Virus record (IMG/VR): IMGVR_UViG_3300028792_000002
Location: 1-40,179 of that record
Source: a virus
Direction: 5' to 3' (one strand)
Length of the DNA stretch: 40,179 bases
The notes beneath the pieces were generated by a model that was given only the letters and a program-made list of their open reading frames with translations, did not search any database and was not told where the DNA came from. Positions 10,354-26,771 of this stretch are shown here, piece by piece (position 1 is the first letter of the stretch; each line of letters starts with the position of its first letter). A program made the translations under genes and the position numbers.

Positions 10354-10620
10354 ATGATGAGCTGGTTCCAGACCCGCGACGGGCACGTGGTGTACGCCGA
10401 AGGTGGCCTCGCGGACGTCTACCGTGCCCGGGGCGCCGTCGAGTCCGACGAGCGTCCCGACGACACCCCCGACGACGACGTCGAGTCGGGTGACTCCGGC
10501 TGGGAGCCCGTCCTCGAGGTCGAGCACCGCACCCACGCCGACCTGACCGAGCAGGAGCTGGCCGACGCCCGGCAGGTGACCGACGACGAGAGCCCGTCCG
10601 GTGTACGCGACGCGGACTGA
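10354..10620 (+). CDS. Highly acidic hypothetical protein, 88 aa
   Basis: ORF rich in Asp/Glu. Overlaps the next gene by 20 nt. Confidence 0.55.
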   Translation: MMSWFQTRDGHVVYAEGGLADVYRARGAVESDERPDDTPDDDVESGDSGWEPVLEVEHRTHADLTEQELADARQVTDDESPSGVRDAD

Positions 10621-10990: not shown

Positions 10991-11304
10991 TGCGTGTCCC
11001 CGGGCTCCTGCTCCGTACCCCCATCCTGCTCGAACGGCACACGGGGAACCGTGGCGACGGCGACACCTACGCCGCGGCCGTGCAGGTGATGGCGGACGTG
11101 AAGACGTCGGTGCGGGTCTCCAACGGCCCCGAGGGGCAGACGATCACAACGTGGGCGACCTGCACTGTCCGCCCCACCGTGACCGTCACGGCTGGTGACC
11201 GGGTGACCGTCCACGGGGTCGCCCGCAAGGTCGCCTCGGTGGCACCCATCCAGGGCGCCGGCCGCACCGTCGCCGGACTGCTGCTGACCGCCGGCGACGG
11301 CTGA
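10990..11304 (+). CDS. Head closure / head-tail joining protein
   Basis: 104 aa. ATG overlaps the upstream TGA. Synteny. Confidence 0.55.
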   Translation: MRVPGLLLRTPILLERHTGNRGDGDTYAAAVQVMADVKTSVRVSNGPEGQTITTWATCTVRPTVTVTAGDRVTVHGVARKVASVAPIQGAGRTVAGLLLTAGDG

Positions 11305-11660
11305 TGGCCGAGATCCGCGTCGTCGCCGACCGCCGGCACGCGTTCACCGCCGAGCTCGAGAAGATCCTCGAACGCACCCTCAACGAGATCGGGAACGACT
11401 GTCTCGCCGAGTCGAACAAGATCGTGCCGCTCGAGGAGGGCACCCTGCAGGGGTCCGGGTTCGTCGAGGTGCAGAAGACCGCGGCGGGGCACATCGAGGC
11501 GCAGGTGGCGTACGGCACCCCGTACGCGGTGAAGCAGCACGAGGACTCGACGTTGAAGCACGACAACGGCCGCGAGGACCACTACCTGGAGAAGACGGTG
11601 GCGGCGCGGACGTCGAAGTGGGAGCAGTACATGGCCGACAAGGTCCGCAACGCCACCTGA
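11304..11660 (+). CDS. HK97 gp10-like neck protein
   Basis: 118 aa. ATGA coupling. VPLEEGTLQGSGF resembles the gp10-family P-x-x-x-G-x-L-x-x-S core. Synteny. Confidence 0.6.
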   Translation: MAEIRVVADRRHAFTAELEKILERTLNEIGNDCLAESNKIVPLEEGTLQGSGFVEVQKTAAGHIEAQVAYGTPYAVKQHEDSTLKHDNGREDHYLEKTVAARTSKWEQYMADKVRNAT

Positions 11661-11691
11661 CGCCTGTCACTCGCCCCCGGATCGTGGGGGC

Positions 11692-12132
11692 GTGCTCACT
11701 GCTGCGATCGCCCGCCACCTCACCACCAGCCACCCCGAACTCGGCCTGGTGTACGACGCCGACGGCACCAACCAGTTCCTGCAGGAGCTCCCCAACGCTC
11801 CCACCGACGCCGTCGCCTGGCTGTTCTCCGTGTCACCGCCGGCCGACCTGTCCGACACCCGGGTGTCCGGGCTGCAGGCCATCGTCCGGTGGACTGCTGG
11901 CACCGGCCGGGCCCGGTCCGGCTACCAGGTGGCCCGCAGCATCCTCGACACCCTCCACGGCCTCCACGGGATCACCCTCGCCCCCGGCACCGAAGACGAG
12001 ACGGTCCTGGTGTCGCTGCTCGCCGACACTGCGGAGCCGATCAACCTCGGCGACGACACCAACGGCGTACCCCGCTGGTCGCTGCGGTTCCAGGCGCAGA
12101 CGGTGGCTGTCACCGCGCACACCATCCTCTGA
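11692..12132 (+). CDS. Tail terminator-like protein
   Basis: 146 aa, immediately upstream of the major tail gene. Confidence 0.55.
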   Translation: MLTAAIARHLTTSHPELGLVYDADGTNQFLQELPNAPTDAVAWLFSVSPPADLSDTRVSGLQAIVRWTAGTGRARSGYQVARSILDTLHGLHGITLAPGTEDETVLVSLLADTAEPINLGDDTNGVPRWSLRFQAQTVAVTAHTIL

Positions 12133-12175
12133 TCTGAGCCACACCCCCCGGCACCCTCGACGATAGGACCACGGC

Positions 12176-12631
12176 ATGACCTCGACCCCCGCGAACGTGC
12201 TCGCCCGCACGTTCCTGCTCTCCGTCAACACGGGCACGGTCGCGTCGCCGACCTGGACCCCCATCAAGGGCATCACCGGCATCAGCCCGGCCCAGTCGGC
12301 GCAGCGCACCGACAACAGCGACTTCGACACCAACGGCTGGGAGTCGCACGACGTCGTCATGCGCGGCCGGTCCCTGTCGGTGGCGATGAACTACAAGGCC
12401 GACCCGACCGACGGGTCCGAGGACCCCGGCCAGGCTGCCGTCATCGCCCTCGGTGACGCCACCGGTACCGCTGCGAAGAAGCAGTTCAAGTACGTCGCCC
12501 CCGGCACGGGCGGCAAGGGCCACACGTTCACGGCGTCCGCCGACATCGCTTGGCCGGGCGGCGACAAGGTCAACAACGCGGTCTTCACCGCGGACCTGAC
12601 CGTCGACGGGGCACCCACCCCGCTGCCGTAA
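12176..12631 (+). CDS. Major tail protein
   Basis: 151 aa, preceded by an RBS-like GATAGGA. Followed by a strong hairpin and the G/G-T chaperone pair. Confidence 0.8.
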   Translation: MTSTPANVLARTFLLSVNTGTVASPTWTPIKGITGISPAQSAQRTDNSDFDTNGWESHDVVMRGRSLSVAMNYKADPTDGSEDPGQAAVIALGDATGTAAKKQFKYVAPGTGGKGHTFTASADIAWPGGDKVNNAVFTADLTVDGAPTPLP

Positions 12632-12651
12632 CCCCGGCGCACCACCAGCTG

Positions 12652-12688
12652 CTGCGGCCCGCTCTCCCTCCCTCGGAGCGGGCCGCAG
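12652..12688 (+). terminator. 13-bp stem hairpin after the major tail gene
   Basis: CTGCGGCCCGCTC (12652-12664) pairs with GAGCGGGCCGCAG (12676-12688). Confidence 0.65.
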
Positions 12689-12731
12689 CCGTGTCTCCCG
12701 GGCTGACACCCGGCCGCTGATCGTTGGGCCC

Positions 12732-13202
12732 ATGAGCGAGCCCACCGCCCCCGAACGTCACGCCGACTACTACGACTTCGACGCCTGGTACGCCGAGAAC
12801 GTCGCCGCGACCATCCCGTTCCGCCTCCTCGGCAAGGTCTGGGACCTCCCCGGCGACGTCGACGCCGGCTACCTGCTGATGCTGCAGCGGTTCGAGCACT
12901 GGGTCGACGCGACCGCGCTCGCCGAGGCCCTCGGCGACCCGCCGCCGCCGCTGCCCGCCGGCGTCACCGACGACGACCTCGCCGCCCTCTCCTACGAGGG
13001 CATCTGTCGCCGTCTCGCCGGCGACGCCACCGTCGACGCCTGGTTGGCCGACGGGATCCCCGCGAAGCTGCTGAAGGCTGTGTCGCGGCGCCTGTTCGCC
13101 ATCCACACCGGCGGGCAGGTCGACCCGGCGGGAAAAGCATCGACCCCGGCGAAGAAGGCGAAGAAGAAGCCGTCGACGCGGACGGGCAGCCCGGGGGCCT
13201 GA
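12732..13202 (+). CDS. Tail assembly chaperone (G-like, 0-frame product)
   Basis: 156 aa between the major tail and tape measure genes. Contains the slip site 13130-13136. Confidence 0.8.
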   Translation: MSEPTAPERHADYYDFDAWYAENVAATIPFRLLGKVWDLPGDVDAGYLLMLQRFEHWVDATALAEALGDPPPPLPAGVTDDDLAALSYEGICRRLAGDATVDAWLADGIPAKLLKAVSRRLFAIHTGGQVDPAGKASTPAKKAKKKPSTRTGSPGA

Positions 13203-13489
13203 TCGGCTGGCTCCTCACCCACTGGGGACCGATCGAGGCCGACTGGGACGCCGTCTACGGACGCGACCTCGCCGACGACATCCACGGCCGCCGCTGCACG
13301 TGGCGGTGGCTACGGAACCGGCTCGAGCGTCTCCTCGCCACCGATGACACCTGGAGCGGCAGGCTGTACGCGACCGACCGATCCCCGATGCCCACTCGGG
13401 ACACCCAGCCGCGCAGCTTGACCCCGCAAGGGGTTTCGAACCTGCTCGACACCTGGGCCAAGACCGAGGAGAACCCGTCGTGGGGCTGA
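12732..13489 (+). CDS. Tail assembly chaperone G-T fusion via -1 frameshift at 13130-13136 (about 252 aa)
   Basis: The -1 frame is open from the slip site to TGA 13487-13489, which overlaps the tape-measure GTG at 13480. That frame has no start codon of its own. Confidence 0.7.
13130..13136 (+). promoter_or_regulatory. -1 programmed frameshift slippery heptamer G_GGA_AAA
   Basis: The 0-frame codons GCG GGA AAA (..PAGKA..) give X_XXY_YYZ in the correct phase. Confidence 0.7.
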
Positions 13490-16299
13490 CCGTCTCTGAG
13501 CTCGCCTTCGTGTTCGGGGCCGACTCCCGCAAGGTCGACAAGGCCCTCCTCGACGTAGACGCGAAGGCGAAGTCCACCGCGTCGTCCATGTCCCGGTCCA
13601 TGACCGCGTCGTGGAAGAAGACCGGTGAGCAGGCCTCCTCGATCTTCCGGAACGTCGAGAAGGGCGCCGCGGTCGCTGGTGTCGGCGCCGGCCGCCGGTT
13701 CGGGACCGCCCTGCACGAGACGCTCGGTGAGTACGCGAAGACCATCGGCGCCACCATGCTCGGGTTCTTCGCCTACGAGAAGGTGAAGGAATTCTTCACC
13801 GGCATGATCGAGGAAGGCCAGAAGGCCGGCGCGACTGCCCGCGTCACGGAACAGGTCATCAAGTCCACCGGTGAAGCCGCCGGGGTCACCGCCGCGCACG
13901 TCGAGGAGCTCTCTGCAGCGATCTCGAAGAAGGTCGGCGTCGACGCTGACTCTGTCCACTCCTCAGCGAACATGCTGCTGACGTTCAAGAACGTCCGCGA
14001 CGAGGTCGGCAAGGGCAACGACATCTTCGACCAGGCCACCCAGGCGGTCGTCGACATGTCGTCGGTGATGGCCGGTTCTGGTGGCTCTGGTGGCGGGGAC
14101 TCGTTGAAGGGTGCCGCGATCCAGATCGGCAAGGCCCTCAACGACCCCATCCGTGGCCTGACCGCGCTCCAGCGTGTTGGTGTCACGTTCGACGCGGACA
14201 CGAAGTCGCGGATCAAGTCGCTCGTCGCCGAGGGCAAGACGATGCAGGCGCAGAAGATCATCCTGCGTGAGCTGAAGTCGGAGTTCGGTGGCGCGGCCGC
14301 GGCCGCATCGGACCCGATCAAGCAGGCCAAGGCCGACTGGATGAACATGGAGGCCGAGCTCGGGCAGCACATGATGCCCACCCTCGGTGCCGTGGCCGGT
14401 GTGGTGACGAACGAAGTGATCCCCGGGTTCGAGGCTGCCGGTTCGGAGATCGGGGACCTGATCCACGACTTCCAGCAGCTGTCCCCGGAGGTGAAGGGGG
14501 CGATCGGCGGGTTCGTCGCGATGCGGACCGCTGCCGCCCTCGGGTTGACGGCGAACCTGCGGGCCAGCCTCGCCGGTGTCGGGTCACAGATGGTGTCGCT
14601 GCGGCTGCGGTCCATGTTCGCTGCCGACGCGTTCCGCACCTCCGTCGCGGGTGGCGCCGGCCGCGCGACCGCGGCCCTCGCAGGACTCCGCGCCGGTGCC
14701 GTCGGAGCCGGCGCAGGCCTGAAGGGCGCCCTCTCCGGGGCCCTCGGCATCGTCGGTGGCCCCTGGGGTGCCGCGTTCATCGGCGCCACGGCCGTCGCCG
14801 TGCACTTCTGGCACGCCCACCAGGACGCGAAGAAGTACGTCGACGACCTCACCCGGTCCCTGAACCAGCAGACCGGAGCCATCACCGAGAACACCACGAA
14901 GACGCAGCTCGCAGAGCTGCAGAAGAACGGTGCGATCGACCTGGCGAAGAAGTACGGCATCAGCCTCGACCTTGTCCGCCGTACGACCATGGGCGGTACG
15001 GCGGCGACCCGCGAGTTCAACCAGGCCCTCGACGTGCAGCTCGCAGCGTTGCAGGGCTCCGGCGTCGGGGTGCACCAGGCCGCCGACGACCTGCAGGGGC
15101 TGCGGTCGAAGGTCACCGGTGCAGCGGGTGCGCTGACCGACGCGCAGGGGAACATCGCGTCGGGTGCGAGCGACCTCGCCGAGTTCCAGGGGAAGGCGAA
15201 CGACGCCCTCAACGCCGGCGCCGACGCGACCGACGGCGCCACCCGCGGGCTCGGCACCTACGCCACCCAGCTGGAGAACGCCCGGACCGCGGTCGACAAG
15301 CTGCGGCTCGCCGAGGACAAGCGGCGTACAGCGCACCTGAAGAACCGTCGTGACCGGCTCGCCCTCGTGCAGTCGATGCAGGCCACCTCGGCGGAGGCGT
15401 CCAACACCACCGAGGTCGCCGACATCAACTCCCAGATCTCCGATGCCCGGAAGTCCGGCGCCGACGAGCGGGCGAACCTGCGCGACCAGTTGGCACACAC
15501 CAAGTCCGCGAAGGAACGGGCGAAGATCAGCCGCGAGATCGCCGCGTCGACCGCGGACGAGGCGAAGAAGGTCGCCGACCTCAACGGCCAGCTGAAGCAG
15601 TACACGAAGACCCTCGACATCCACACGAAGGCCGGGCAGGCGAACCTCTCCGCGCTCTACGACCTCGCGGACCAGTGGAACAACTCCTCGACCGCCGTAC
15701 GACGCTCGAAGGGCATGTACGAGCAGGTGCGGGCCGAGTTCATCAAGGACGCGATGACGATGGGCGACACGCGCGCCCAGGCGAAAAAGCTCGCCGACGA
15801 CATCCTGTCGGTGCCGAAGGGCCACGAGATCGACATCAAGACCCCCGGAATGAAGCAGGCCCTCGAGGACATCAAGAAGTTGCACGACGAGATCCGGGGG
15901 AACCGGAAGCTCGCGATCTCCGTGTCCGACCACATGGCCGGCGACCGACGCCTCGAGGGGCACGCCGGTGGCGGCTGGCTCGGCGGCCCGGGTGGCCCCC
16001 GCGACGACAAGGCTGGGGTCACCCGCTACAGCCGTGGCGAGTTCATGGTCAACGCTGCGGCGGCCAGCAAGCACGGGCGTCTGCTCGAGGCGGTCAACCG
16101 TGGTGAGGACCCGGGCATGTCACAGCGCGGTGGAGGCTACGGGAGTGGAACCGACATCGCTGCAGCCGTCGCTGCGGGCATCCAGGCCGCGGGCCACATC
16201 GCGCCGCTCATGCAGGTCGGGACCCTCACGCACACCGACATGCGGGAGACCGAGCGGCACCTGCAGACCCTCGGTGTCCTCGCCGCTGCGGGGGGCTGA
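13480..16299 (+). CDS. Tape measure protein
   Basis: 939 aa, the longest ORF. Directly after G/G-T. Ala/Gly-rich hydrophobic central segments and coiled regions. Confidence 0.9.
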   Translation: MGLTVSELAFVFGADSRKVDKALLDVDAKAKSTASSMSRSMTASWKKTGEQASSIFRNVEKGAAVAGVGAGRRFGTALHETLGEYAKTIGATMLGFFAYEKVKEFFTGMIEEGQKAGATARVTEQVIKSTGEAAGVTAAHVEELSAAISKKVGVDADSVHSSANMLLTFKNVRDEVGKGNDIFDQATQAVVDMSSVMAGSGGSGGGDSLKGAAIQIGKALNDPIRGLTALQRVGVTFDADTKSRIKSLVAEGKTMQAQKIILRELKSEFGGAAAAASDPIKQAKADWMNMEAELGQHMMPTLGAVAGVVTNEVIPGFEAAGSEIGDLIHDFQQLSPEVKGAIGGFVAMRTAAALGLTANLRASLAGVGSQMVSLRLRSMFAADAFRTSVAGGAGRATAALAGLRAGAVGAGAGLKGALSGALGIVGGPWGAAFIGATAVAVHFWHAHQDAKKYVDDLTRSLNQQTGAITENTTKTQLAELQKNGAIDLAKKYGISLDLVRRTTMGGTAATREFNQALDVQLAALQGSGVGVHQAADDLQGLRSKVTGAAGALTDAQGNIASGASDLAEFQGKANDALNAGADATDGATRGLGTYATQLENARTAVDKLRLAEDKRRTAHLKNRRDRLALVQSMQATSAEASNTTEVADINSQISDARKSGADERANLRDQLAHTKSAKERAKISREIAASTADEAKKVADLNGQLKQYTKTLDIHTKAGQANLSALYDLADQWNNSSTAVRRSKGMYEQVRAEFIKDAMTMGDTRAQAKKLADDILSVPKGHEIDIKTPGMKQALEDIKKLHDEIRGNRKLAISVSDHMAGDRRLEGHAGGGWLGGPGGPRDDKAGVTRYSRGEFMVNAAAASKHGRLLEAVNRGEDPGMSQRGGGYGSGTDIAAAVAAGIQAAGHIAPLMQVGTLTHTDMRETERHLQTLGVLAAAGG

Positions 16300-16302
16300 C
16301 CG

Positions 16303-16758
16303 GTGACACAGGTCAACATCACCCGTGCTTCCCCGTTGCCGACCAGCGACCTGGTCGTGACCGGCGCGAAGGCTGACGGCACCCCGTCCCTGATCCGTGG
16401 TGGCCTGCAGCTGCCGCAGCCCGTCGCCGACGTCGCGTATGCGCCGGCGCCGCCGTGGCTGCACGGCGACGTGCCCACGTCGAAGCGGTTCCCGAACGCC
16501 ATCCTCGCGATGCGGGTCCGCATCGAGGCGGCGACCGAGGACGCCCACCGCGACATCGTCGACGCCTGGCGCAAAGCCCTCTCCGACCAGATGACCTACA
16601 CGGCCACGGTCGTCGTCGGGGACCGGACCGACGTGTGGAAGTGCTACCCCGGGTCCATCGTGGTCACGAACGGGGACCGGACGTCCTGGCCTGTCGGGCA
16701 GCCCGTCGTCGACTGGTACACGATCACCATCCCCGTCCACCCGATCCAGGTGAGCTGA
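16303..16758 (+). CDS. Minor tail protein (distal-tail position), 151 aa
   Basis: First gene after the tape measure gene. Assigned by synteny only. Confidence 0.55.
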   Translation: MTQVNITRASPLPTSDLVVTGAKADGTPSLIRGGLQLPQPVADVAYAPAPPWLHGDVPTSKRFPNAILAMRVRIEAATEDAHRDIVDAWRKALSDQMTYTATVVVGDRTDVWKCYPGSIVVTNGDRTSWPVGQPVVDWYTITIPVHPIQVS

Positions 16759-16761
16759 CCC

Positions 16762-17184
16762 ATGGCGAAGACTCTGACCGCGGCCATCGCGGCGTTGAAG
16801 ACGCAGTACGGCGACGCTCACGCTGCGGTGTGGCCGTCCACCTGGCAGACGCGGCTCTACCAGGGCGACCCGCGGGACGGTGGGGTGGAGCTCGACACCA
16901 CCAACTATCCCGGCTATGCGGCTGGGACGGTGGGGAACACGTCGGCGAACTTCCCTGACCCGGACGGTACGAGCGGGGTGATGACGTCCGCGGTGCTCAC
17001 GTTCGCGACTCCGACGGGCGACTGGGATGACGTCCCGTCCCACGTCGGACTCTGTGACCCGACCGGTGGGGTGCTGTTGGAGGTGTTCGCTGTGGACTTC
17101 GGGGTGTACGCGGACGGCACCCCGGGTGCTGGGGAGGCGGTCACGGGGCAGATCCAGGTGACCTATCCGTGGCAGGTGGCCTGA
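16762..17184 (+). CDS. Minor tail protein, 140 aa
   Basis: Synteny. Shares a loose motif pattern with the N-terminal half of 17244..17834. Confidence 0.55.
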   Translation: MAKTLTAAIAALKTQYGDAHAAVWPSTWQTRLYQGDPRDGGVELDTTNYPGYAAGTVGNTSANFPDPDGTSGVMTSAVLTFATPTGDWDDVPSHVGLCDPTGGVLLEVFAVDFGVYADGTPGAGEAVTGQIQVTYPWQVA

Positions 17185-17243
17185 CACGGGTGGCCGCATG
17201 CTTTCGACGCACGCCCACCATACGCAGCGCGAGGAGACCGTAG

Positions 17244-17834
17244 ATGCCCGGGAACTTGACGGACTACGAGGAGAACCGACTCCTCGACCTGTCGTGGTTG
17301 ACGACCGACAAGGCTGCGTTGATGGCGGTGCTGGGCACGGACTCGACGACCGGCACCGAGGTGACCGGGGGCTCGTACGCCCGACAGACCACCAGTTCGC
17401 TGGCGTCCGCGTCCGCCGGGTCGAAGTCCACGTCGGCTGCGCTGTCGTTCACCGGGATGCCGGTGACGGACGTGCAGGGCTGGGCCCTGTTCGACTCGGC
17501 GGGGACGAACCGGAAGTGGTACGGCCTGTTCGCGGAGACCACCGGCACCGCCCAGGCGACCGGTGACACGGTCACCGCGACCGCGCACGGGCTGTCGAAC
17601 GGGCAGAAGGTCGTGTTCCTCACCGGCTACGTCCCGGCGGGCCTGTCGGCGTCGACGACGTACTTCGTGGTGGGTGCGACGACGAACACGTTCCAGGTGG
17701 CCGCCACCTCTGGCGGCAGCGCCATCGACATCACCGCGGACGCGGCGAAGGTCGTGTTCGGGAAGGTGCAGGCCGTGACCGTGGGGCAGACGTTGCAGAT
17801 CGCGTCGGGCCAGCTGACGATCTCGATGGACTGA
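17244..17834 (+). CDS. Minor tail protein, 196 aa
   Basis: GAGGAG RBS. N-terminal NLTDYEENRLLD..GGSYARQ pattern, which I recall from uncharacterised phage tail-region proteins. Confidence 0.6.
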   Translation: MPGNLTDYEENRLLDLSWLTTDKAALMAVLGTDSTTGTEVTGGSYARQTTSSLASASAGSKSTSAALSFTGMPVTDVQGWALFDSAGTNRKWYGLFAETTGTAQATGDTVTATAHGLSNGQKVVFLTGYVPAGLSASTTYFVVGATTNTFQVAATSGGSAIDITADAAKVVFGKVQAVTVGQTLQIASGQLTISMD

Positions 17835-17847
17835 CGGGGTCTCCCTG

Positions 17848-18651
17848 ATGGCTCGTCTGCGGTACAACGGCCTCACGGCTGCCCTGGGTGCTTCCCTGAC
17901 GTCGTCGGCGACGTCGGTGACGTTCGCGGCTGCCCTGACCCACAGCAACGGTGTGGCGGTCCCGACGTTGTCGGGTGGTGACTACATCCCGTTGACGATC
18001 CTCGACTCGTCGGGGAACGTGTCGGAGATCGTCTACTTGACGGCGTACACGTCGGGTGGGACGACGGGGACGATCACGCGGGCGTGTGAGACGACGGTGA
18101 CGGGGGTTGCGCATTCGTCGGGCGACAAGGTGGTACATGGGGCCACGGTTGCGGACATTGCACCAGGGATCGTCTTGCTCAAGAAGATCACGCTGGCATC
18201 CGACGCCGCGTCCCTCGCGTTCACCAGCACCGACATTCCCACCACCGGCTACTCCCACCTACGGCTACAGATTCTCGGGCGCACGACGCTGAACGACGTC
18301 GACGAGAGCCTGAGCCTCACGATCAACGGCGACACGACGACGGCCAACTACCGACACAAGTACTGGTACGGCTCAACGAACAGCAACGCGACGGGTCCGG
18401 ATGCGATGTTCCTCGCTGCGGTGAACGCGCCCGCCGCCCGCCCGGGCCTTTCGGATCTTGACTTCTTCGACTTCCTGGGGAGCTGGCAGAAACTCGTCAA
18501 GACGAGCTACTACTCGCCCGGCAGTCAGACCGAGGGCCTTGGTGCCATCGAGTGGTTCAACACCGCAGCCATCACCAGCATCTCGCTCGCCCCCGCCACC
18601 GGGTCGAACTTCGTGGCTGGGACGAAGGCGTGGCTCTACGGCATCGTGTGA
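17848..18651 (+). CDS. Minor tail protein, 267 aa
   Basis: Synteny. The 3' 279 nt are overlapped antisense by the acyltransferase ORF. Confidence 0.6.
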   Translation: MARLRYNGLTAALGASLTSSATSVTFAAALTHSNGVAVPTLSGGDYIPLTILDSSGNVSEIVYLTAYTSGGTTGTITRACETTVTGVAHSSGDKVVHGATVADIAPGIVLLKKITLASDAASLAFTSTDIPTTGYSHLRLQILGRTTLNDVDESLSLTINGDTTTANYRHKYWYGSTNSNATGPDAMFLAAVNAPAARPGLSDLDFFDFLGSWQKLVKTSYYSPGSQTEGLGAIEWFNTAAITSISLAPATGSNFVAGTKAWLYGIV

Positions 18652-19653
18652 CGCACCACGTCGCGAATGCTCGAGCAACGGTCGTTCCGCGTAGCGCCAG
18701 GAAAGCCAAGCGATCAGCACCGACAGTCCCACCAAAACGCTTCGGCCCAACAGGTTGAAGTCGACGACGTTGAGTAACAGCCCGTGCCATAGGTACAGGC
18801 CGTATGAGAGTCGCCCAAACCAACCCAGCGACGGTGACGCAAGGGGGCCGGCCTCCACCGTCCGGGCGGCGGTCACCAGAACCGCGGCCAGCACGGCCGC
18901 CACCATCGATCCCCACAGCACGCCGCGGTCACCGGGGAGGACCACGGTGATCGCAAGGCCGCCGAGTGCGAGCGCGACTGCGCGCCGACCGAGTTGCGGA
19001 AGCCGACCGTCACGTTCGAGCGAAGCCAGCAGGCACCCGAGCAGCAACGCGTAGGCGTTGGTGTCCGGCGCAAAGTACACCCGCGTGAAGCCGAAGGTGA
19101 GGATCGCGGCGCCCCGCCAGGCCACTGCCACGGCAAGCATCGCAGCCAGGATGCGAGTCGCGGAAGGGCGTCGCCGAACCACGAGCGTCAACAGCAGCGG
19201 CCACACGAGGTAGAACTGCTCCTCGACCGCCAGCGACCACGTCCCGCCCAACGGGCTATTCAGTCCATGCGCGACGGCGAAGTCCATCATGTAGCCACCA
19301 GACAGAATGACGTCGCGCAGCGTCGAGAGCGGTGACCCGCCGCCGAGCATCACCAGCACGGGCAGCGCCACCAGGACCGACACGAGCGCCGGGAGCAATC
19401 GCGCAGCACGGCGCAGATAGAACCGCCGGTACGAAACCTGGCCGTCCCGGTCGAGGTCACGCAGAAGGATGCCGCTGATCAGGTAGCCGGAGAGCACGAA
19501 GAAGACGGTCACGCCTACGGCGCCCGGGCGATTGATCCACGGGACGCTGCCGAGCAGCACGTGGTGAGCGAGCACAAGCAGGATCGCGATGCCTCGCAGT
19601 CCGTCCAGCGCGGGCCTACGCCCGAGCCGCCACGTATCCCCCGTGTGGTCCAT
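18373..19653 (-). CDS. Acyltransferase family 3 (OafA/Oac-like) integral membrane protein
   Basis: N-terminal RRPALDGLRGIAILLVLAHH..VTVFFVLSGYLISG signature and multiple hydrophobic helices. ATG at 19653 is preceded by GGAGG. No stop codon until 18373. Confidence 0.85.
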   Translation of the reverse strand: MDHTGDTWRLGRRPALDGLRGIAILLVLAHHVLLGSVPWINRPGAVGVTVFFVLSGYLISGILLRDLDRDGQVSYRRFYLRRAARLLPALVSVLVALPVLVMLGGGSPLSTLRDVILSGGYMMDFAVAHGLNSPLGGTWSLAVEEQFYLVWPLLLTLVVRRRPSATRILAAMLAVAVAWRGAAILTFGFTRVYFAPDTNAYALLLGCLLASLERDGRLPQLGRRAVALALGGLAITVVLPGDRGVLWGSMVAAVLAAVLVTAARTVEAGPLASPSLGWFGRLSYGLYLWHGLLLNVVDFNLLGRSVLVGLSVLIAWLSWRYAERPLLEHSRRGASHDAVEPRLRPSHEVRPGGGGERDAGDGCGVEPLDGTKALGLTAGRVVARLDEFLPAPQEVEEVKIRKARAGGGRVHRSEEHRIRTRRVAVR

Positions 19654-19756
19654 GCCTCCGAGTGTGCGGCACCCCACCCCCGATTAACAGTCAAATCCGT
19701 GCCCTGACAGCCGGCACCCCACACTTTCGGCGGGATCCCGACGCAGGAGGTAGTGC

Positions 19757-22468
19757 ATGTACGCCGGATCGGCTTACGCTGCCGCCCCCTACGCGGGCGA
19801 GACGTCGACCGGTCCCGCGCCCCTCATCGCCGACCCTGCCGCCGGGGAGGGCGCCGGCGACAGCACCGCCACCCCGACGATCGTCCCCGTCCTGGTCACC
19901 GACCCCGGGACCGGTACAGGCACCGGCGACGGGACCGCGACGCCCACCCTGATCGACGCGATCCTCACCGACCCCGCCACCGGTGCTGGTTCCTCCGACG
20001 CCACAGCGGCCGCGGACCTGTCCGGCGGCACCGCCACTGCACCCCCCGCAACCGGCACAGGTAGCAGCGACGGCACCGCCGGCACACCCACCATGAGCGG
20101 CGGACTCGTCACCTCCGACCCCGCCAGCGGCACCGCGTCCTCCGATGGCACTGGTGCCGCGACCCGCTCCTACCCACCGCCCACCCCACTCGTCAACTAC
20201 GAGCTCGAGGACAGCCGCGTCCTCCTCTCCACCGACAGTGGCCTCGACGACGACGCATCCCTCTCCCGGGAACCGCTCCGCACGGTCGCGATCTCCGTAC
20301 CGGCCGCCAACTTCAACACCACCACCGGCCTCCCCGCCACCGCCTACGTGAACGGGCGTGCCGTCTTCCACGACACGTGGGCCGACAGCGTGCACCTCGT
20401 CGTCGACGGGGTCGACGTGACCCGGTTCCGTGGCCAGCCCGCCGACATCGTGCAGTGGCCGTTGCTGTCGCAGGACCCCCTCGGCTACGGCGGCGCGATC
20501 TTCGGTTTCCCCGGGTTCAACGCCGGGGAACTCCGGTCCACCCCGTCGGCGATGCCGCGGGGGCTGCGGTGGGCTAGGAACCACGCCCGTGCCGCCCTGG
20601 TGCCCGTGGTCGGTGGGGTACGGCAGGACCCGATCTGGCGTGGCCGCCTGTCCCGGTTCCAGTTCACCAGCGACCGTAAGGTGCAGGCCGTCTTCGACGG
20701 CGACGCCGTCGGCGCACTGGCCACCGACCAGCGGCAGCAGCAGATCTTCCACCGGAAGAAGGACGCCGGGATCTGGCTCTACGACGCGTTCGTCTCCCAC
20801 AACCTGCGCCTCACCCCCTACCTCGGTGCCACCACCGGCATCGTCCTCCCCGAACGCGGCTCCGGAGAGACCTACCTCGAGTACGTGCAGTCCCTGCTCG
20901 CCGACCAGGTGCACGTCGACGGCTCCTGCTACACCGTGATGCCCACCTCTGATGGGTCGTCGTACCACCATCAGCTGCGGGACACGACGACCGTCCACTA
21001 CACCGTGTTCGCCGAGGCCGACGGTGTCGACCTGACCGGCCTCGTCCGTGACGGCAACGAGGAACCGAACACGTTCTACGGGTACGGGCAGGACCCGGAC
21101 GGCCGGATCTGGATGAAGGCCGTCCTCCCCGGCCTCACCTCCCAAGGCACCCCGCCGGACTACCCGATCGCCGCCGGCACCCCCTTCGGGATCGGGACGA
21201 CGAACGCAGCGTTCGACGACCCGGCCGCCGACATGCTCGCGGCGATGATCTGGAAGCTCGTCGGCATCAACCGGCTGTCCCGGAAGGACGCGCCGGGCGG
21301 GTACGACGACGACGTCGCCGAGGCCGTGAAGGACGTCCAGGAAGCCGCCGGACTCACCGTGACCGGGGTGATGAACCCGGCGACGTGGGACGCGATGTAC
21401 TCCCACGGCGTGACCGGGTTCAACATCAACAACGCCCGGGTGACGCCGCTGGTGCAGAAGCCGTCGGTGTCGAAGTGGCTGTTCGACACGAACGGTGACC
21501 TGGTCGGCCGGAACCCGGCGTTCGACCCGCGCACCCAGATCGTCGCCCGGACCATCCAGCACGGCAACCTCCCCCAGGATGCGGCGACCCGCTGGTCCCG
21601 TGGGGAGATGGCTCGGCAGGACGGCCCGAACTGGGCCGGCACCATCAACCTGAACCGGGTGGACGTATTCGCCGGCGACTACAACCATGGCGACCCCGAC
21701 CCGGTCATCGTGTCCCGGTTCGCGATCAAGGCGAACCGGAACATCAAGGTCGTCGGCCACGACGGGGACACCCTGTTCCACATCGCCGCGAACCAACCCC
21801 AGTCCTGGGACTCGACCACGTTGACGGTGGACACGCAGGCCCGGGACCGGAAGACCATCGGGGAGATCCGAGCCCGCAACGTCGAGTCCCGTCGCAACCG
21901 TGGCCGCATCTGGAAGCAGGAGCACGGCCAGTCGGGGATGGCGAAGGACGGCCGCATCCCGTTCTGGGGCCCCGCGGGTGTCGTCGACACCCCCATCCAC
22001 CTCACCGGGGGCCGGTGGAACGAGTTCTTCGTGCTCGCCGGCGACGAGGGCACCATCGGGAAGCTGCGGCTGCACGTCGCCACCTCAGCGTTCTACGCGG
22101 CCGTGTTCGCACAACGCCCGGGTGTGGGCTGGTTGCAACGCCACATCGGGGACCCGTCGGCGGTCGACCACGACAAGAACCCGGTGTGGATGAAGGAGTC
22201 GGTGCAGGCCCGCCTGTTCGAGCAGCGGACCCTGCTGCACGCCCAGGGCACCGCCGCGGAGCCCCTCGGCTACGCCCCGCGAACCCATCAGAAGGCCGAC
22301 GGGTCCGGGGTGACCGACGCCCCCGTCACAGGCCTCCACGTCGACGACAGTGGGTTCCCGTTCCACGCCTACGGGCAGCCGTTGCTGTGGGTGGCGATCT
22401 GGCCCCTCGCGGACTCGGTGGTCCGGCCGGGCCGGATCATGTGGGACCAGCTCGCGAGCATGTCGTGA
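19757..22468 (+). CDS. Large minor tail protein with N-terminal repeats and a peptidoglycan-binding-like segment
   Basis: 903 aa, AGGAGG RBS. About five degenerate DPxxGxGxxDxTAxPT units. GYDDDVAEAVKDVQEAAGLTVTGVMNPATWDAMY resembles a PG_binding_1 repeat. Confidence 0.8.
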   Translation: MYAGSAYAAAPYAGETSTGPAPLIADPAAGEGAGDSTATPTIVPVLVTDPGTGTGTGDGTATPTLIDAILTDPATGAGSSDATAAADLSGGTATAPPATGTGSSDGTAGTPTMSGGLVTSDPASGTASSDGTGAATRSYPPPTPLVNYELEDSRVLLSTDSGLDDDASLSREPLRTVAISVPAANFNTTTGLPATAYVNGRAVFHDTWADSVHLVVDGVDVTRFRGQPADIVQWPLLSQDPLGYGGAIFGFPGFNAGELRSTPSAMPRGLRWARNHARAALVPVVGGVRQDPIWRGRLSRFQFTSDRKVQAVFDGDAVGALATDQRQQQIFHRKKDAGIWLYDAFVSHNLRLTPYLGATTGIVLPERGSGETYLEYVQSLLADQVHVDGSCYTVMPTSDGSSYHHQLRDTTTVHYTVFAEADGVDLTGLVRDGNEEPNTFYGYGQDPDGRIWMKAVLPGLTSQGTPPDYPIAAGTPFGIGTTNAAFDDPAADMLAAMIWKLVGINRLSRKDAPGGYDDDVAEAVKDVQEAAGLTVTGVMNPATWDAMYSHGVTGFNINNARVTPLVQKPSVSKWLFDTNGDLVGRNPAFDPRTQIVARTIQHGNLPQDAATRWSRGEMARQDGPNWAGTINLNRVDVFAGDYNHGDPDPVIVSRFAIKANRNIKVVGHDGDTLFHIAANQPQSWDSTTLTVDTQARDRKTIGEIRARNVESRRNRGRIWKQEHGQSGMAKDGRIPFWGPAGVVDTPIHLTGGRWNEFFVLAGDEGTIGKLRLHVATSAFYAAVFAQRPGVGWLQRHIGDPSAVDHDKNPVWMKESVQARLFEQRTLLHAQGTAAEPLGYAPRTHQKADGSGVTDAPVTGLHVDDSGFPFHAYGQPLLWVAIWPLADSVVRPGRIMWDQLASMS

Positions 22469-23694
22469 GCAACGACCTGCGCGCCGACGCCCACCCCCTC
22501 ACCTTCGGGGTGACCGGTGGACCGGTGAACAACACGGGCTTCACCCTCGAGTCCGGAGAGACGCCCTGCTCCTACGGGATCGGGTCGACGGCCTGGTGGA
22601 CGTTCACCACCGGCCCCGACGACGCCGGCCGCAAAGTCGTGGTCGACACGTACTGGACCGGCGCCCCCACGTCGCTGGCCGTCTGGCACGGCTCCACCTC
22701 CCTGAACGCTCAAGCGTCCTTCAGTGGCCCGGCCGCCGCCACCATCACGGTCGCCGCGAACACCACCTACCACGTGCAGGTCGACTCCATCGGCGCCACT
22801 GCCGACCTCGCCGTCTCCGTCGCCTTCCACATCGAGCACACAGCCGAGATCCCGTTCGGCGGTGCCGAGGCGTTCTACCTGGGCGTCGACGAGTTCCACC
22901 ACGTCTCGGTGGGCATGACCGAGCACTTCCAATCGAACACCAGCATCGACGACGGCGCCGGCACACCGTTCGATCAGCGATCCATCGCCTACGCCAACAC
23001 CATCACCCCCAGCGGCGCCCTCGCTGACCCGTCGACCAGCAACTACTTCACCGCCGACAGCCAGCAGTTCGCCGCCGACGTATATGCCGGCGCCCACGGC
23101 GACTACTACGAGCAGCTCTGGCTGCATGCCGGGCTCTCGGACGGTGCCGACGTCGTCCCGGCCGACGCGCTCGAGATCGACTTCGCCGTCAAGCTCACCG
23201 CGAAGTCCGATACCGGGGCGCACGGCTACTGGTGGGAGATCGACTTCTTCTGCGCGGGCGCGAACGCCTACTCGTCCACCGACCCATCTTGGCCCGGCGG
23301 GCGGCCGTGGATCACCTTCACTGGCCTCGACCTGTCCGGTGGCAGTTCGTGGACCACGTCGACGACTTCGTGGACCGAGCTCTACAACATCAACCCCGAC
23401 GTGCTCACCGCGGCGATCGCGAACCTGCGGGCCGGCCGGGTCACCGCGCTGATCCAGCCCGCCGTGGTGTACGGATCGATCGTCTCGGACTGGGTGGACT
23501 TCTACGCCTACCTGGCGCTGATGGTGCGGTGGTTCACCTACGACCGTCCCGGCCCGCCCAACCCGCTGGTCCCACCGCATCAGCGCGTGTTCCCCCGTGG
23601 CAACGACAGCCGCGGCGTCCGCTCCGGCGCCCGCGTGTTCCCCCGCCCCACCACCCGGATCGGCTCCAACAGGACCGGGCACGTCATCTACTGA
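22465..23694 (+). CDS. Minor tail / candidate receptor-binding protein, 409 aa
   Basis: GTG overlaps the upstream stop (GTGA). Last tail gene before the lysis cassette. Confidence 0.65.
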   Translation: MSNDLRADAHPLTFGVTGGPVNNTGFTLESGETPCSYGIGSTAWWTFTTGPDDAGRKVVVDTYWTGAPTSLAVWHGSTSLNAQASFSGPAAATITVAANTTYHVQVDSIGATADLAVSVAFHIEHTAEIPFGGAEAFYLGVDEFHHVSVGMTEHFQSNTSIDDGAGTPFDQRSIAYANTITPSGALADPSTSNYFTADSQQFAADVYAGAHGDYYEQLWLHAGLSDGADVVPADALEIDFAVKLTAKSDTGAHGYWWEIDFFCAGANAYSSTDPSWPGGRPWITFTGLDLSGGSSWTTSTTSWTELYNINPDVLTAAIANLRAGRVTALIQPAVVYGSIVSDWVDFYAYLALMVRWFTYDRPGPPNPLVPPHQRVFPRGNDSRGVRSGARVFPRPTTRIGSNRTGHVIY

Positions 23695-23718
23695 CACCCG
23701 GCCGCGCACCCTCACGGC

Positions 23719-24564
23719 ATGAACGCACGCATCGACGGGATCGACCTGTCCCACTGGCAGGGCGGCGCCCTCGACTTCGGCACCGCCAAGCGCGCCGGCG
23801 TCCGGTTCGTGTTCCACAAGGCCACCGAGGGCACCGGCAGCAAGGACCCGAACTACGGCCACCGTCGTGACGAGGTCGCCGCCGCAGGGATCCCGTTCGG
23901 CGCCTACCACTTCGCCAGGCCCGCCGCGTCCGACGGCAAGACCCAGGCCCGCTACTTCCTGTCCGTCGCCAGGCCCCGGCCGGGCGACATGCGGCCCATG
24001 CTCGACCTCGAGGACGCGGGCGGCCTGCAGACGGGGCGGCTCACCGTCTGGGTGCGGGACTTCGTCGCCGAGGTCGCCAAGGAGACCGGCGTCAAGCCGA
24101 TCATCTACACGTCGTTCACCCTCGAGGACCACTGGGACTGTGCCCTCTGGGTGGCCCGATACTCCGACGCCATGAACCCGCCCCGGGTCCCGATGCCGTG
24201 GCGGCAGTGGACGATCTGGCAGTTCTCCAACGGCGAGTTCGGCCACCCGTCCACCGTGCCGGGCATCGGGCGCTGCGACATCAACACGATCAACAGCCAC
24301 GACCCCGGCCGCGTCGTCGAGGCCCTGCGCATCGGGCACACCGATGCGCCGCCGGAGCCGCAGCCGAAGCCGCTCGAGCGGCCGGCCACCCCGACCCGCG
24401 TGCTCCGCGCCCGGGACCAGCTGCACGTCGCGCTCAACGCCACGAACACGGCGCTCGCGCTCTGTACCGCCTCGAAGCGACCGCGGGCCCTGCTCGCGGC
24501 CGTCGTACTCCGCCGCGCCGTGAAGCTGCTGCAGCGCAGCCTCACCACCCTCCCGCCCGACTGA
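23719..24564 (+). CDS. Endolysin, glycoside hydrolase family 25 muramidase
   Basis: GIDLSHWQG, FVFHKATEG and FGAYHFARP motifs typical of GH25. About 80 aa of unassigned C-terminus. Confidence 0.85.
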   Translation: MNARIDGIDLSHWQGGALDFGTAKRAGVRFVFHKATEGTGSKDPNYGHRRDEVAAAGIPFGAYHFARPAASDGKTQARYFLSVARPRPGDMRPMLDLEDAGGLQTGRLTVWVRDFVAEVAKETGVKPIIYTSFTLEDHWDCALWVARYSDAMNPPRVPMPWRQWTIWQFSNGEFGHPSTVPGIGRCDINTINSHDPGRVVEALRIGHTDAPPEPQPKPLERPATPTRVLRARDQLHVALNATNTALALCTASKRPRALLAAVVLRRAVKLLQRSLTTLPPD

Positions 24565-24578
24565 CCCCTGGAGCACCC

Positions 24579-24770
24579 ATGATCCCGTCCTCCGTCGCCC
24601 GCACCGCCAAGGCCGTCGCCGCCCTGCTCGTCTGCGCGGCCGCGTACCTCGTCGGCATCCTGTCCGGCAACCAGACCCTCGGTGACGTCACCACCGTCCA
24701 GTGGCTCGGCCTCGTCGTGTTCATGGGCGGCGCCTACGGCATCACGTACGCCGTCCCGAACCGCCGCTGA
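24579..24770 (+). CDS. Holin-like membrane protein, 63 aa
   Basis: Two hydrophobic helices (AVAALLVCAAAYLVGIL, WLGLVVFMGGAYGITYA). Immediately after the endolysin gene. Confidence 0.6.
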   Translation: MIPSSVARTAKAVAALLVCAAAYLVGILSGNQTLGDVTTVQWLGLVVFMGGAYGITYAVPNRR

Positions 24771-24822
24771 CACACGGCCCCCGACTCTGGGGGTCCAGCA
24801 CCCGCGACCGACAAGGCCACCC

Positions 24823-25290
24823 ATGGTCCACTTCCTGACCTCCACCGCCGGCATCATCACCAGCGTGGGAGCCGCCTGCCTGCTGCTGGCGGGACTCGGG
24901 AAGTGGCTGTACGGCACCAAGAAGCAGCCCGGCGTCTTCCGCAAGCTGGGCGCCGACGGCCGCGCCATCCGCGACACCCTCGTCGGCCGCGACGCCATCC
25001 ACGACAGCATCACCGGCGAGGAACTCTCCCCAGCGATCCTCGGTGTCGGCGCACGCATGGCCCACCAGGAGTCCGAGACCAGCGAGATCAAGGACGCCGT
25101 CACTTCCCTCGCCTCGTCCGTCGCCACCCTCGTTGACCTGCGCACCGAGATCACCGACCTGACCGGCCGGGTGGCGCACATCGAGACGGCGATCGGGATG
25201 GAGCGTCACCTGAAGGGCCTCGAGTCGGTGCAGCTGCTGCGGACCATCGAGTCCGTCGCGACCGGCGAACCACCCACTGTCGGCGACTGA
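24823..25290 (+). CDS. Membrane-anchored coiled protein, 155 aa (lysis accessory candidate)
   Basis: N-terminal TM helix (IITSVGAACLLLAGLG) followed by a helical region. Last gene of the late operon. Confidence 0.55.
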   Translation: MVHFLTSTAGIITSVGAACLLLAGLGKWLYGTKKQPGVFRKLGADGRAIRDTLVGRDAIHDSITGEELSPAILGVGARMAHQESETSEIKDAVTSLASSVATLVDLRTEITDLTGRVAHIETAIGMERHLKGLESVQLLRTIESVATGEPPTVGD

Positions 25291-25406: not shown

Positions 25407-25518
25407 ACCGGTCCCACGAGGTCCCCAGGCACCCCCAGCCGACACCCCCGAAACACGGGCTGACCTGCACGAACAGCCCTCGCGTCACCTCGGGCCCTAC
25501 TATGCCCTGAGCGCCCGA

Positions 25519-25568
25519 TCAGACTTCTAATCTGTTGGTCGCAGGTTCGAATCCTGCCGGGGGCGCCC
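25519..25568 (+). other. attP core: 3' half of a tRNA-Arg(TCT)
   Basis: Anticodon stem-loop with CTTCTAA loop (25524-25530), variable loop, T-arm GCAGG-TTCGAAT-CCTGC and 3' acceptor strand CGGGGGC. No matching 5' acceptor strand or D-arm upstream. Confidence 0.75.
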
Positions 25569-26771
25569 TGTTTCAGTCGCCCACTGGGGCAGATCTGGGG
25601 CAGCGGGCAGCAGACTGCTGACGCTGGCGCTGCTCTTCTTCCGCTCCAGGTGGGCGTACCGCTCCGTGGTCACGATCGATGCGTGGCCGAGCAGGTCCCG
25701 CACCTCCTCGAGCGTCTTCCCGCCCTGCAGCAGCCACGACGCGTACGTGTGCCGCAGGTCGTGCACTCGCGGTCGGGGGTGCACCCCGGACCGGCAGTCC
25801 GGGCATCCCGGGACGGGTACGGCCTGCTCGAGCTCACGATGCTTGCGGCAGACCATCGGGGACACGGCAGGCAGCCACACCCGGTTCGTCCAGTTGGTGT
25901 CCCGCAGCACCGCGCCCCCGGCGGTGGTGAACAGCAGCGGCCCCCGGCAGCGACCGACCGCGTGCGGCACCGGGCACGGCCCGGGCGGCCGGTCCACCTC
26001 GAGCAGCACCTTCATCAACCACGCCGGGACCGGGACGGTGCGCGCGCTCCGCGACTTCGGGTACGCCTTGATCCGGTGGGACTTCTCGTCGTACGTCTCG
26101 ATGATCCGGACGGCCTGCAGGTCGGGGATCAGCCGGTCCACGTGCATGCCGGCCATCTCCCCCCACCGGACCCCGGTGTTGGCGAGGAACTGGGCGACCA
26201 GCCAGTCGAGCAGGCTTGGCAGGTCGTCGACGATGCTCTCGAACTCGGGGACGGTCAGGTACCGCTCGACGGCCTGGGCGCCCTTCGGCAGCTTGATCCG
26301 GGCGGCCGGGTTCGCGTCGAGGATCTCGGCGTCGACGGCCGCGGCGAGGCTGGCCGACAGCAGGTGCACCTGCCGCTGCACGGTCGACGGCGACAGGCCG
26401 GTGCGGAGCAGTCCGGCGGCCCACGCCTTCACGTCGTGGCGACGGATCGACCCGATCGGTACGGCACCCCACCGGGGCCGCAGGTGGTGGTCCCGGTTCG
26501 AGGACTGGGTGACCAGGGTGGACGCTTCGACGGTGCGGGTGGGCCACCACTCGTCGACCCACTCACCCCAGGTGCGGCGGCCGGCGTCCGGGTCGGCCCA
26601 GATCGACTTCCGGGCGTCGGTCTCCTTCGACCCGGCTTCGCGGACCGCCTCGGCCTTGTGGGTGAACAGGCGGGTCTTCCCGGCGGTGTCCTTGACGGTG
26701 TGCTTGCGGCCGTGGTGGTCGCGGTAGAGGCCGCGGTACTTGCCGGACGGCAGCTTCTCGGACCACGCCAT
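25527..26771 (-). CDS. int: Tyrosine integrase
   Basis: 414 aa from MAWSEKLPSGKYRGLYRD. Catalytic-type motifs GVRWGE, HDLRHTYASW and LGHASIVTTERYAHL. Adjacent to the tRNA-derived attP. Confidence 0.9.
   Translation of the reverse strand: MAWSEKLPSGKYRGLYRDHHGRKHTVKDTAGKTRLFTHKAEAVREAGSKETDARKSIWADPDAGRRTWGEWVDEWWPTRTVEASTLVTQSSNRDHHLRPRWGAVPIGSIRRHDVKAWAAGLLRTGLSPSTVQRQVHLLSASLAAAVDAEILDANPAARIKLPKGAQAVERYLTVPEFESIVDDLPSLLDWLVAQFLANTGVRWGEMAGMHVDRLIPDLQAVRIIETYDEKSHRIKAYPKSRSARTVPVPAWLMKVLLEVDRPPGPCPVPHAVGRCRGPLLFTTAGGAVLRDTNWTNRVWLPAVSPMVCRKHRELEQAVPVPGCPDCRSGVHPRPRVHDLRHTYASWLLQGGKTLEEVRDLLGHASIVTTERYAHLERKKSSASVSSLLPAAPDLPQWATETGRPRQDSNLRPTD
25584..25603 (+). repeat. Two direct CTGGGGCAG copies (candidate arm-type Int sites, P' arm)
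   Basis: CTGGGGCAG at 25584 and 25595, in the same orientation as the left pair and 200 bp away from it. Confidence 0.5.

Follow-up and report, generated by a model that had tools for sequence, protein, structure and literature searches.

The closest analogue of the locus analysed here is the tailspike/oac pair of phage Sf6, whose Oac protein is described as acetylating the O-antigen, blocking the Sf6 endorhamnosidase tailspike and giving superinfection immunity (PMC9558356). The same 2022 review describes OafB as prophage-encoded and protective against the BTP1 tailspike; the phage acyltransferase-3 (AT3) acetyltransferases that it names (Sf6, SfII, BTP1, PhiV10) all modify Gram-negative lipopolysaccharide (LPS) O-antigen, and the actinobacterial AT3 enzymes that it discusses are antibiotic-tailoring enzymes (PMC9558356). 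Here we describe an AT3 gene that lies antisense within the late region of an uncultured phage, IMG/VR record IMGVR_UViG_3300028792_000002, of which positions 1 to 40,179 (40,179 nucleotides, 69.7% GC) were analysed and are referred to as the window. With moderate confidence we propose that this enzyme acylates an envelope glycan in the lysogen and so alters phage adsorption, because the enzyme appears intact, the lifestyle temperate, the gene antisense, its 5′ block conserved, a fibre gene juxtaposed, and a homologue flanked by glycan genes. To our knowledge, receptors and lysogenic-conversion functions in high-GC hosts are largely uncharted, and the gene suggests that a temperate phage of such a host, probably an actinobacterium, also masks its receptor.

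Membership of the family PF01757 Acyl_transf_3 (InterPro IPR002656) was defined by a score above the gathering threshold over most of the domain, and the protein scores 122.4 bits where 31 would suffice (E = 2.7e-35), its residues 22–324 spanning profile positions 2–322 of 326. It also matches PHROG 6705 ‘O-antigen acetylase’ (E = 6.7e-49) and phrog_3333 ‘O-acetyltransferase’. Motifs, numbered here from the ATG at 19653, were checked in two alignments, one with Sf6 Oac, two other phage acyltransferases and cellular homologues, the other with 56 homologues from databases. The R and H of R20-X10-H31 in transmembrane (TM) helix 1 are invariant in 57 sequences and aligned with Sf6 Oac, their counterparts in OafA being R14 and H25 of the R/K-X10-H motif (PMC7448272). 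In TM2 the stretch V48-T-V-F-F-V-L-S-G-Y57 presents the V48xxFFxLSGY57 motif and is followed by the conserved RxxR motif R82-A-A-R85, whose two arginines correspond to Oac R73/R75; both motifs, the first as V-x-x-F-F-x-(I/V/L)-S-G-(F/W/Y), are defined in PMC9558356 and PMC7448272. Additionally, the TM6 glycine G206, a position described as replaceable by alanine in OafA (PMC7448272, PMC9558356), and E323 after TM10 are conserved.

The AlphaFold model consists of ten long helices with a predicted local distance difference test (pLDDT) score >90 for residues ∼10–335, and the hydropathy peaks agree. Its top fold matches in the PDB are to human HGSNAT with acetyl-CoA, at a probability of 0.98–0.99 but a marginal E of ∼0.05 and TM of 0.32; such a match agrees, weakly, with the TmAT superfamily as proposed in PMC12423673. 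A PDB search by sequence returned no match to any solved AT3 structure. Neither an SGNH domain nor an 11th helix was found, the sole Pfam matches being Acyl_transf_3 and, in part, OpgC_C; the best-scoring named family in NCBIfam is mycobacterial SucT, with 64 bits against a cut-off of 1275. By sequence this is an AT3-only protein, as Oac is, and not one of the OafA/OatA type, and sequence and model together argue for an intact, functional acyltransferase. The sequence-only reading had taken the product for an AT3 multi-pass membrane protein and pointed to acyltransferases of OafA/Oac type. The peptide motifs that it named are present, and the Pfam match, the motifs and the ten-helix model bear this reading out, with the qualification that of the two named types Oac fits, as the protein is AT3-only, and OafA does not, as SGNH is missing.

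We place the start codon at the ATG at 19653, where the N-termini of four related phage acyltransferases align and where the public gene call on a 6.3-kb Logan contig of identical sequence (L002) likewise begins; an in-frame GTG at 19677 would alternatively give an open reading frame (ORF) of 434 aa (18373..19677). Analysis of GC content at third codon positions (GC3) by frame identifies it as the sole supported minus-strand gene between ∼65 and 25290, a structural and lysis block with plus-strand genes throughout apart from it. Public gene calls on an ENA contig of identical sequence (L001) are all on the plus strand over window positions 9757–25290, and other minus-strand genes occur only in the lysogeny module (25.5–28.1 kb). 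The frames and the public calls thus agree with the earlier claim that it is the only minus-strand gene in the late operon. Another minus-strand frame, of 184 aa (GC3 0.84), fills the interval ahead of the portal gene and runs into the start of that gene; it matched no family and is taken as a probable shadow ORF.

The public annotation of L001 skips the AT3 gene, leaving a 1.1-kb hole (L001 8896–10000, window 18652–19756), and the omission, possibly caused by the 279-nt opposite-strand overlap of its read-through tail with the fibre gene, is a lesson for annotation. Within these 279 nt the acyltransferase frame has a GC3 of 0.53 and a GC content at first codon positions of 0.85, the mirror image of the fibre frame with its GC3 of 0.85. 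Homologues of 340–390 aa cover only the core (65–89% of the query) and not the tail, and residues 335–426 are hydrophilic, rich in R, G and E, and modelled with a pLDDT of 41–67. The equivalent tails of relatives are 12–91 aa long and unrelated in sequence, and cellular homologues likewise have variable tails past the final motif. Positions 18373–18651 are therefore probably not selected coding sequence; the functional protein would end ∼10 residues past the final SWRYAERP motif, the remainder reading on to the first chance stop codon. The long 3′ end might instead be read as damage, the ORF then being a decaying or non-functional remnant or a high-GC shadow ORF, as the last 93 codons are non-coding in composition and overlap the fibre gene, the ENA annotation omits the gene, and its GC3 of 0.81 lies below the 0.92 ± 0.03 of 20 phage genes. 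We consider this hardly credible given the near full-length Pfam match, the intact motifs, the high-confidence model, the variable tails of cellular homologues and the intact orthologous genes in at least eight other phages (∼41–46% identity).

The gene that converges with the acyltransferase gene encodes a tail-fibre-like protein that is likely the receptor-binding protein. Its family comprises at least 152 homologue clusters of ∼150–408 aa that share the N-terminal ∼105 aa at ∼60–80% identity, while the C-terminal parts differ in length and sequence; the four C-domains that were compared are unrelated, and some members carry lectin-type domains (Laminin_G_3, 3keto-disac_hyd, BclA_C). The model of the fibre is all-beta. 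Judged from these alignments, the conserved N-domain with its variable C-domain is a modular receptor-binding protein architecture.

The convergent order of fibre gene and opposite-strand AT3 gene with a 3′ overlap is present in seven phages or contigs, whose fibres all differ in their C-domain (Group 1): the window, L007 (IMG/VR UViG_3300013307_000029), L109 (ERZ27397410), L110 (JGI 3300039444), L112 (SRR31213973) and the short contigs L102 and L104, which cover only the fibre/acyltransferase junction. Wherever the contig extends that far a tail protein of the 903-aa type comes next, its homologues adjoining the module in L007, L109, L110 and L112. Two further loci, L031 and L113 (Group 2), carry the antisense AT3 gene one slot later, where it is convergent with and overlaps the gene after the large tail protein. 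All acyltransferases of these loci were confirmed as AT3 by PF01757 or by hidden Markov model (HMM). The L113 gene (9228–10316) belongs to another AT3 lineage, which tblastn with the window acyltransferase missed and an HMM recovered (E = 1.6e-13), which suggests independent captures of AT3 genes by this tail region. In L110, a minus-strand ORF of 140 aa without family match (6785–7207) lies directly upstream of the AT3 gene and would form a two-gene antisense unit with it. A third group yielded no AT3 gene in the stretches examined (L115, L111, L114, L008, L009, L106, L012, L013, L015, L003 and Pam4), and in L115 and L113 the fibre gene is directly followed by the large tail protein with no AT3 gene at that junction. 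The earlier claim that the acyltransferase is linked to an adsorption gene is strengthened twice over, by a neighbour that matches PHROG tail-fibre families and has modular C-domains, and by the recurrence of the convergent pair in six further phages or contigs.

Because of this presence and absence among relatives the acyltransferase gene is, on the sequences compared, an accessory, moron-like gene that is recurrent and tied to distal tail genes. Across five complete pairs the acyltransferase cores are 41–46% identical, the fibre N-termini 71–82% identical and the fibre C-domains mostly unrelated, a pattern that fits long-term retention under selection. The clade is large, since an N-terminal W(R/K)LGxR(P/A) signature is shared by 40 of the 120 best homologue clusters, and relatives are encoded on 281 IMG/VR stretches. 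On several high-GC viral contigs a lone antisense AT3 gene is convergent with, and 0.1–1.2 kb from, tail-spike, depolymerase-like or tail genes. A cellular homologue (42% identity) adjoins a Wzx-type flippase and a nonulosonic-acid (NeuB-type) cluster, and on another contig (L116 3045–4767) an antisense AT3 gene stands with a PglD-like hexapeptide-repeat sugar acetyltransferase between tail genes and an amidase (lysis).

Base composition gives a more limited picture. The acyltransferase core has 67.6% GC against 69.7% for the genome, which places it at the 14th percentile of sliding windows; the signal that counts is GC3, modestly lowered to 0.81 against 0.92 ± 0.03. The acyltransferase of L007 has the same GC3 as its neighbours (0.87). 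The compositional island comprises fibre and acyltransferase genes and not the latter alone, because the lowest-GC kilobase of the genome begins at 17800 and is the fibre gene (64.2% GC, GC3 0.85). The gene had been described as a foreign, lower-GC moron on the strength of hand counts of 33/60 and 43/60 GC, and these counts are correct; its accessory presence and absence upholds the moron part, whereas a foreign origin is weakly supported. A recent one-off foreign insertion does not agree with an acyltransferase that recurs in the phage lineage at ∼41–46% pairwise identity.

In every Group 1 case the last conserved motif of the acyltransferase ends 5–10 codons before the fibre stop codon, and the ORF then reads into the fibre gene antisense for 41–282 nt where its stop codon lies on the contig. 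A 3′ overlap is present in 9/9 cases of Groups 1 and 2, with 39–282 nt in eight of them and an approximate ∼66 nt in L104, whose contig ends within the ORF. Inverted repeats at both gene ends are trivial palindromes only, with no strong hairpin at the junction. If the antisense transcript were the selected feature, instead of or besides the enzyme, transcription of the acyltransferase could keep down leaky expression of fibre and tail genes in lysogens, and late transcription could in turn silence the acyltransferase. The invariable overlap and the lack of a terminator or strong junction hairpin favour such a role, as does the comparison with Sf6, which has a spacer and an annotated terminator. 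Antisense stop codons are, however, rare in DNA of 70% GC, so that the overlap may be a passive result of zero intergenic spacing, and the motifs of the enzyme are under clear purifying selection; we regard this explanation as very unlikely.

The first 127 bases of the window (1–127) repeat directly as the last 127 (40053–40179), which indicates a circular assembly and a genome of 40,052 bp; accordingly, the 40,193 bp of the ENA contig are the 40,052-bp unit plus a 141-bp overlap. The phage, a siphophage, is temperate from its gene content, because it encodes an integrase and a helix-turn-helix (HTH) repressor and carries a tRNA-Arg-type attP. The attP-like core reaches into the 3′ end of the integrase ORF, the Logan contig stops within it (window 25549), and ARAGORN found no complete tRNA gene in the window, only the partial tRNA-Arg of attP. 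No cultured relatives were matched by megablast of the region or tblastn of the acyltransferase core against 50,697 GenBank phages. The more distant matches are a portal ∼36% identical to that of Streptomyces phages and a 903-aa tail protein 31.6% identical to gp36 of Pseudanabaena phage Pam4; between the tape-measure gene and the gene for the large tail protein, Pam4 and the window are syntenic. The host is probably a high-GC, Gram-positive actinobacterium; a clade member on a metagenome-assembled genome labelled Nocardioidaceae (L116) is the sole host hint, and a weak, binning-based one.

An ungapped comparison of five phages revealed a conserved block upstream of the acyltransferase start codon, with a column conservation of 0.70–0.82 at positions −40 to −11 against ∼0.5 around it and also above that of the coding region. 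The bases T-A...G at −33, −32 and −28 are invariant in the five phages, and a hexamer TA(T/A)(C/T)NG (TAATCG in the window, 19686..19681) stands exactly 27 nt before the start and is followed by a GGTGCCGCA-like block. The AT-rich island CGATTAACAGTCAAATC at 19681–19697, one of only ten such 17-mers (≥11 A/T) in 40 kb, belongs to this block, and several of the ten lie at attP and in the repressor/early intergenic region. A conserved RNA structure was considered and rejected (consensus energy −0.84 kcal/mol, one covarying pair). An N-terminal coding extension was likewise set aside as the principal reading: the frame is open in four relatives, but the window has an in-frame TAA at a conserved position where the relatives use the rare codon TAT, and clade members start 2–13 residues before WRLG. 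The in-frame TAA, the rare TAT and these start positions argue for a signal at the DNA or RNA level, and the block could be a promoter, an operator or a leader. Among relatives, L110 has GAAGG at the same 1-nt spacing as the GGAGG of the window, and L007 and L112 lack a Shine-Dalgarno sequence. Two signals had been named in the sequence-only reading: the AT-rich island, suggested as a possible promoter, lies where stated and within conserved sequence but lacks a sigma-70 match, and the GGAGG is present although its role as a ribosome-binding site is doubtful at a spacing of 1 nt.

The distinct 5′ block also bears on whether the enzyme acts during productive infection, either altering receptors of the infected or lysing cell and so sparing progeny from loss on debris, or making an acylated epitope required by the fibre. 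Its gene stands amid late genes, well away from the lysogeny module, the genome was assembled as a free circle in two assemblies, and some phages, such as G7C, need O-acetylated receptors (bioRxiv 10.1101/2021.06.09.447823). Late transcription would nevertheless collide with the antisense gene, the gene has a conserved 5′ block of its own, and making its own receptor on an already infected cell gives a phage no obvious benefit, so that we hold action in lytic growth to be quite improbable.

For acylation in the lysogen, which we favour, we envisage the following sequence of events, in which lysogen expression, donor, acceptor and effect on adsorption are all predicted. In the lysogen the late operon would be silent and the acyltransferase transcribed from its own conserved 5′ element. 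The enzyme would carry acyl groups, most probably acetyl donated by acetyl-CoA, through the membrane and attach them as esters to an envelope glycopolymer, which might be a polysaccharide of the wall, a polymer of teichoic type or an exopolysaccharide. The changed glycan epitope would reduce adsorption of the same or related phages, amounting to lysogenic conversion and superinfection exclusion as with Sf6 Oac. During lytic growth, late transcription running antisense through the gene should suppress the acyltransferase.

Several observations weigh against this proposal. Some 6 kb separate the gene from the lysogeny module, and it has to be read against late transcription; the 1-nt spacing of the GGAGG is too close for a canonical Shine-Dalgarno sequence, which makes this element doubtful; and neither a sigma-70-type promoter nor an intrinsic terminator was found in 17500–20500. 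An HMM search of the examined stretches of 12 related loci found no AT3 gene, and a scan of species-representative genomes with the fibre N-terminus found no related prophage, giving weak Shimia matches only. For binding of glycan by the fibre, the fibre model has no significant fold matches. Co-variation between acyltransferase and fibre type was not visible in the five complete pairs, all acyltransferase pairs being ∼43% identical, including those with weakly related fibre C-domains.

This lack of visible co-variation also favours a reading in which the acyltransferase would be active on a non-receptor envelope target such as peptidoglycan, exopolysaccharide or lipoglycan and its position beside the fibre gene would only reflect a permissive insertion site, the lysogen gaining resistance to lysozyme or endolysin, resistance to unrelated phages or an altered surface. 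AT3 proteins are described as acylating many acceptors (PMC9558356), SucT is the best named NCBIfam match, though far below its cut-off, and the gene occupies two slots in the tail region and lies beside integrases in other phages. Against peptidoglycan as the target, AT3-SGNH enzymes are described as using SGNH for the final transfer (PMC9558356, PMC7448272) and the window enzyme has no SGNH; against a permissive site, 7/7 phages with the fibre gene directly upstream and an acyltransferase of this clade place it exactly at the fibre stop codon. We consider a non-receptor target unlikely. We are no less tentative about an extension of the receptor-directed proposal, in which the variable fibre C-domain and the antisense AT3 gene would form an exchangeable ‘recognise-and-mask’ cassette in uncultured soil actinophages, antisense-coupled via the 3′ overlap. 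The acyltransferase would then modify exactly the wall-glycan epitope bound by the partner fibre, and the terminator-less overlap would couple the two genes, with the acyltransferase expressed in the lysogen but shut down when late transcription begins. In that case host range and superinfection exclusion would both be determined by a single cassette, and acyltransferase/fibre pairs could serve to read out receptor glycan chemistry in Actinobacteria. Recurring next to a hypervariable fibre in seven or more uncultured phages, the gene offers a testable handle on wall-glycan receptors.

The features of the locus and of the phage genome are collected in Table 1. The 903-aa tail gene is divergent from the acyltransferase gene and has its own AGGAGG at 19745–19750. 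The N-terminal ∼215 aa of its product (19757–20400) are of low complexity, rich in Pro, Thr, Gly and Ala, and unaligned with relatives, and L007 and L112 have separate ORFs of 167 and 206 aa where this region lies. For the small tail genes encoding the 140-aa and 196-aa proteins, PF23140 (‘podophage GP4 fiber I protein gp80’) was matched below threshold. The integrase and repressor-like genes flank a lipoprotein-like ORF (signal peptide, then Cys) and a small multi-pass membrane ORF, both of which could be further prophage-expressed exclusion genes; in Pfam the membrane ORF matches BPD_transp_2 with 16.9 bits, short of the cut-off of 26.8. PADLOC defence-system models gave no match for the AT3 protein or the ORFs of the lysogeny module.

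Table 1. Features of the acyltransferase locus and of the phage genome (window coordinates)
Feature	Position	Strand	Remarks
AT3-only acyltransferase coding sequence	18373..19653	−	426 aa from ATG at 19653
AT3 catalytic/transmembrane core	18706..19614	−	Pfam match
Read-through C-terminal extension of the acyltransferase ORF, 93 codons	18373..18651	−	antisense to fibre 3′ end
GGAGG	19655–19659	−	1 nt upstream of ATG 19653
Conserved 5′ block upstream of acyltransferase start	19663..19693	−	includes GGTGCCGCAC; ungapped comparison, five phages
Tail-fibre-like protein, 267 aa	17848..18651	+	PHROG 8469/30299 ‘tail fiber protein’
Large tail protein, 903 aa, peptidoglycan-binding repeat	19757..22468	+	PF01471, E = 1.2e-8
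Terminase, portal, capsid, 939-aa tape-measure protein	within ∼65–25290	+	late block
Small tail proteins of 151, 140 and 196 aa, after tape measure		+	late block; 140 aa, 16762–17184; 196 aa, 17244–17834
Tail protein of 409 aa, after the 903-aa one		+	late block
GH25 lysin and holin-sized ORF		+	lysis part of block
Probable shadow ORF, 184 aa	2639–3193	−	
Lysogeny module	25510–28129	−	ORFs, Pfam and tRNA-like sequence read directly
attP-like core, 3′ part of tRNA-Arg(TCT)	∼25510–25565		anticodon arm, T-arm, acceptor end
Tyrosine integrase	25527 to ∼26783	−	PF00589, E = 1.9e-15
Lipoprotein-like ORF	26771–27112	−	
Small multi-pass membrane ORF	27130–27558	−	
HTH_3 repressor-like gene	27530–28129	−	PF01381, E = 2.7e-5

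Set beside known systems, the window acyltransferase shares features with four of them. One of them is the moron of temperate phages, of the lom/bor type of phage lambda; like a moron, the gene is accessory, lies between late genes in opposite orientation, deviates in GC3 and likely has its own 5′ signal, but no terminator was found, the compositional island includes the fibre gene, and the acyltransferase is a long-standing, diverged component of its lineage. SucT, which succinylates mycobacterial arabinogalactan and lipoarabinomannan, resembles it as an AT3 domain that acts on envelope polysaccharides in Actinobacteria and as its best named NCBIfam match. In contrast to the window protein, SucT is chromosomal, 723 aa long and equipped with an extra C-terminal domain, and the window protein is not an equivalog. 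With OafA, OafB (GtrC family II of BTP1) and OatA, the Gram-positive peptidoglycan O-acetylase of the fused AT3-SGNH type, it has the AT3 membrane domain and its motifs in common; these proteins carry a fused periplasmic SGNH domain and an 11th helix, whereas the window protein has a low-confidence tail after helix 10.

Sf6 Oac, finally, is likewise an AT3-only protein with a ∼330-aa core without SGNH that keeps R-X10-H, FFxxSG and RxxR. Its phage is temperate as well, and oac faces the receptor-binding gene in convergent orientation, on the strand opposite to the late operon. In the Sf6 record the tailspike gene (13719–15590, plus strand) and oac (15624–16625, minus strand) converge on an annotated terminator, and an oac promoter is annotated as well. 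The two proteins are, however, only 19% identical, and Sf6 oac stands at the end of the late operon beside int, with a 33-nt spacer, terminator and promoter, whereas the window gene lies inside the operon, at least five late genes coming after it, with a 279-nt overlap and no terminator found. The phage described here also differs in its high-GC host, and because that host is probably Gram-positive the acceptor cannot be LPS O-antigen. Unlike the Sf6 pair, the window acyltransferase recurs throughout an uncultured lineage of some size, in which the fibre heads have been exchanged.

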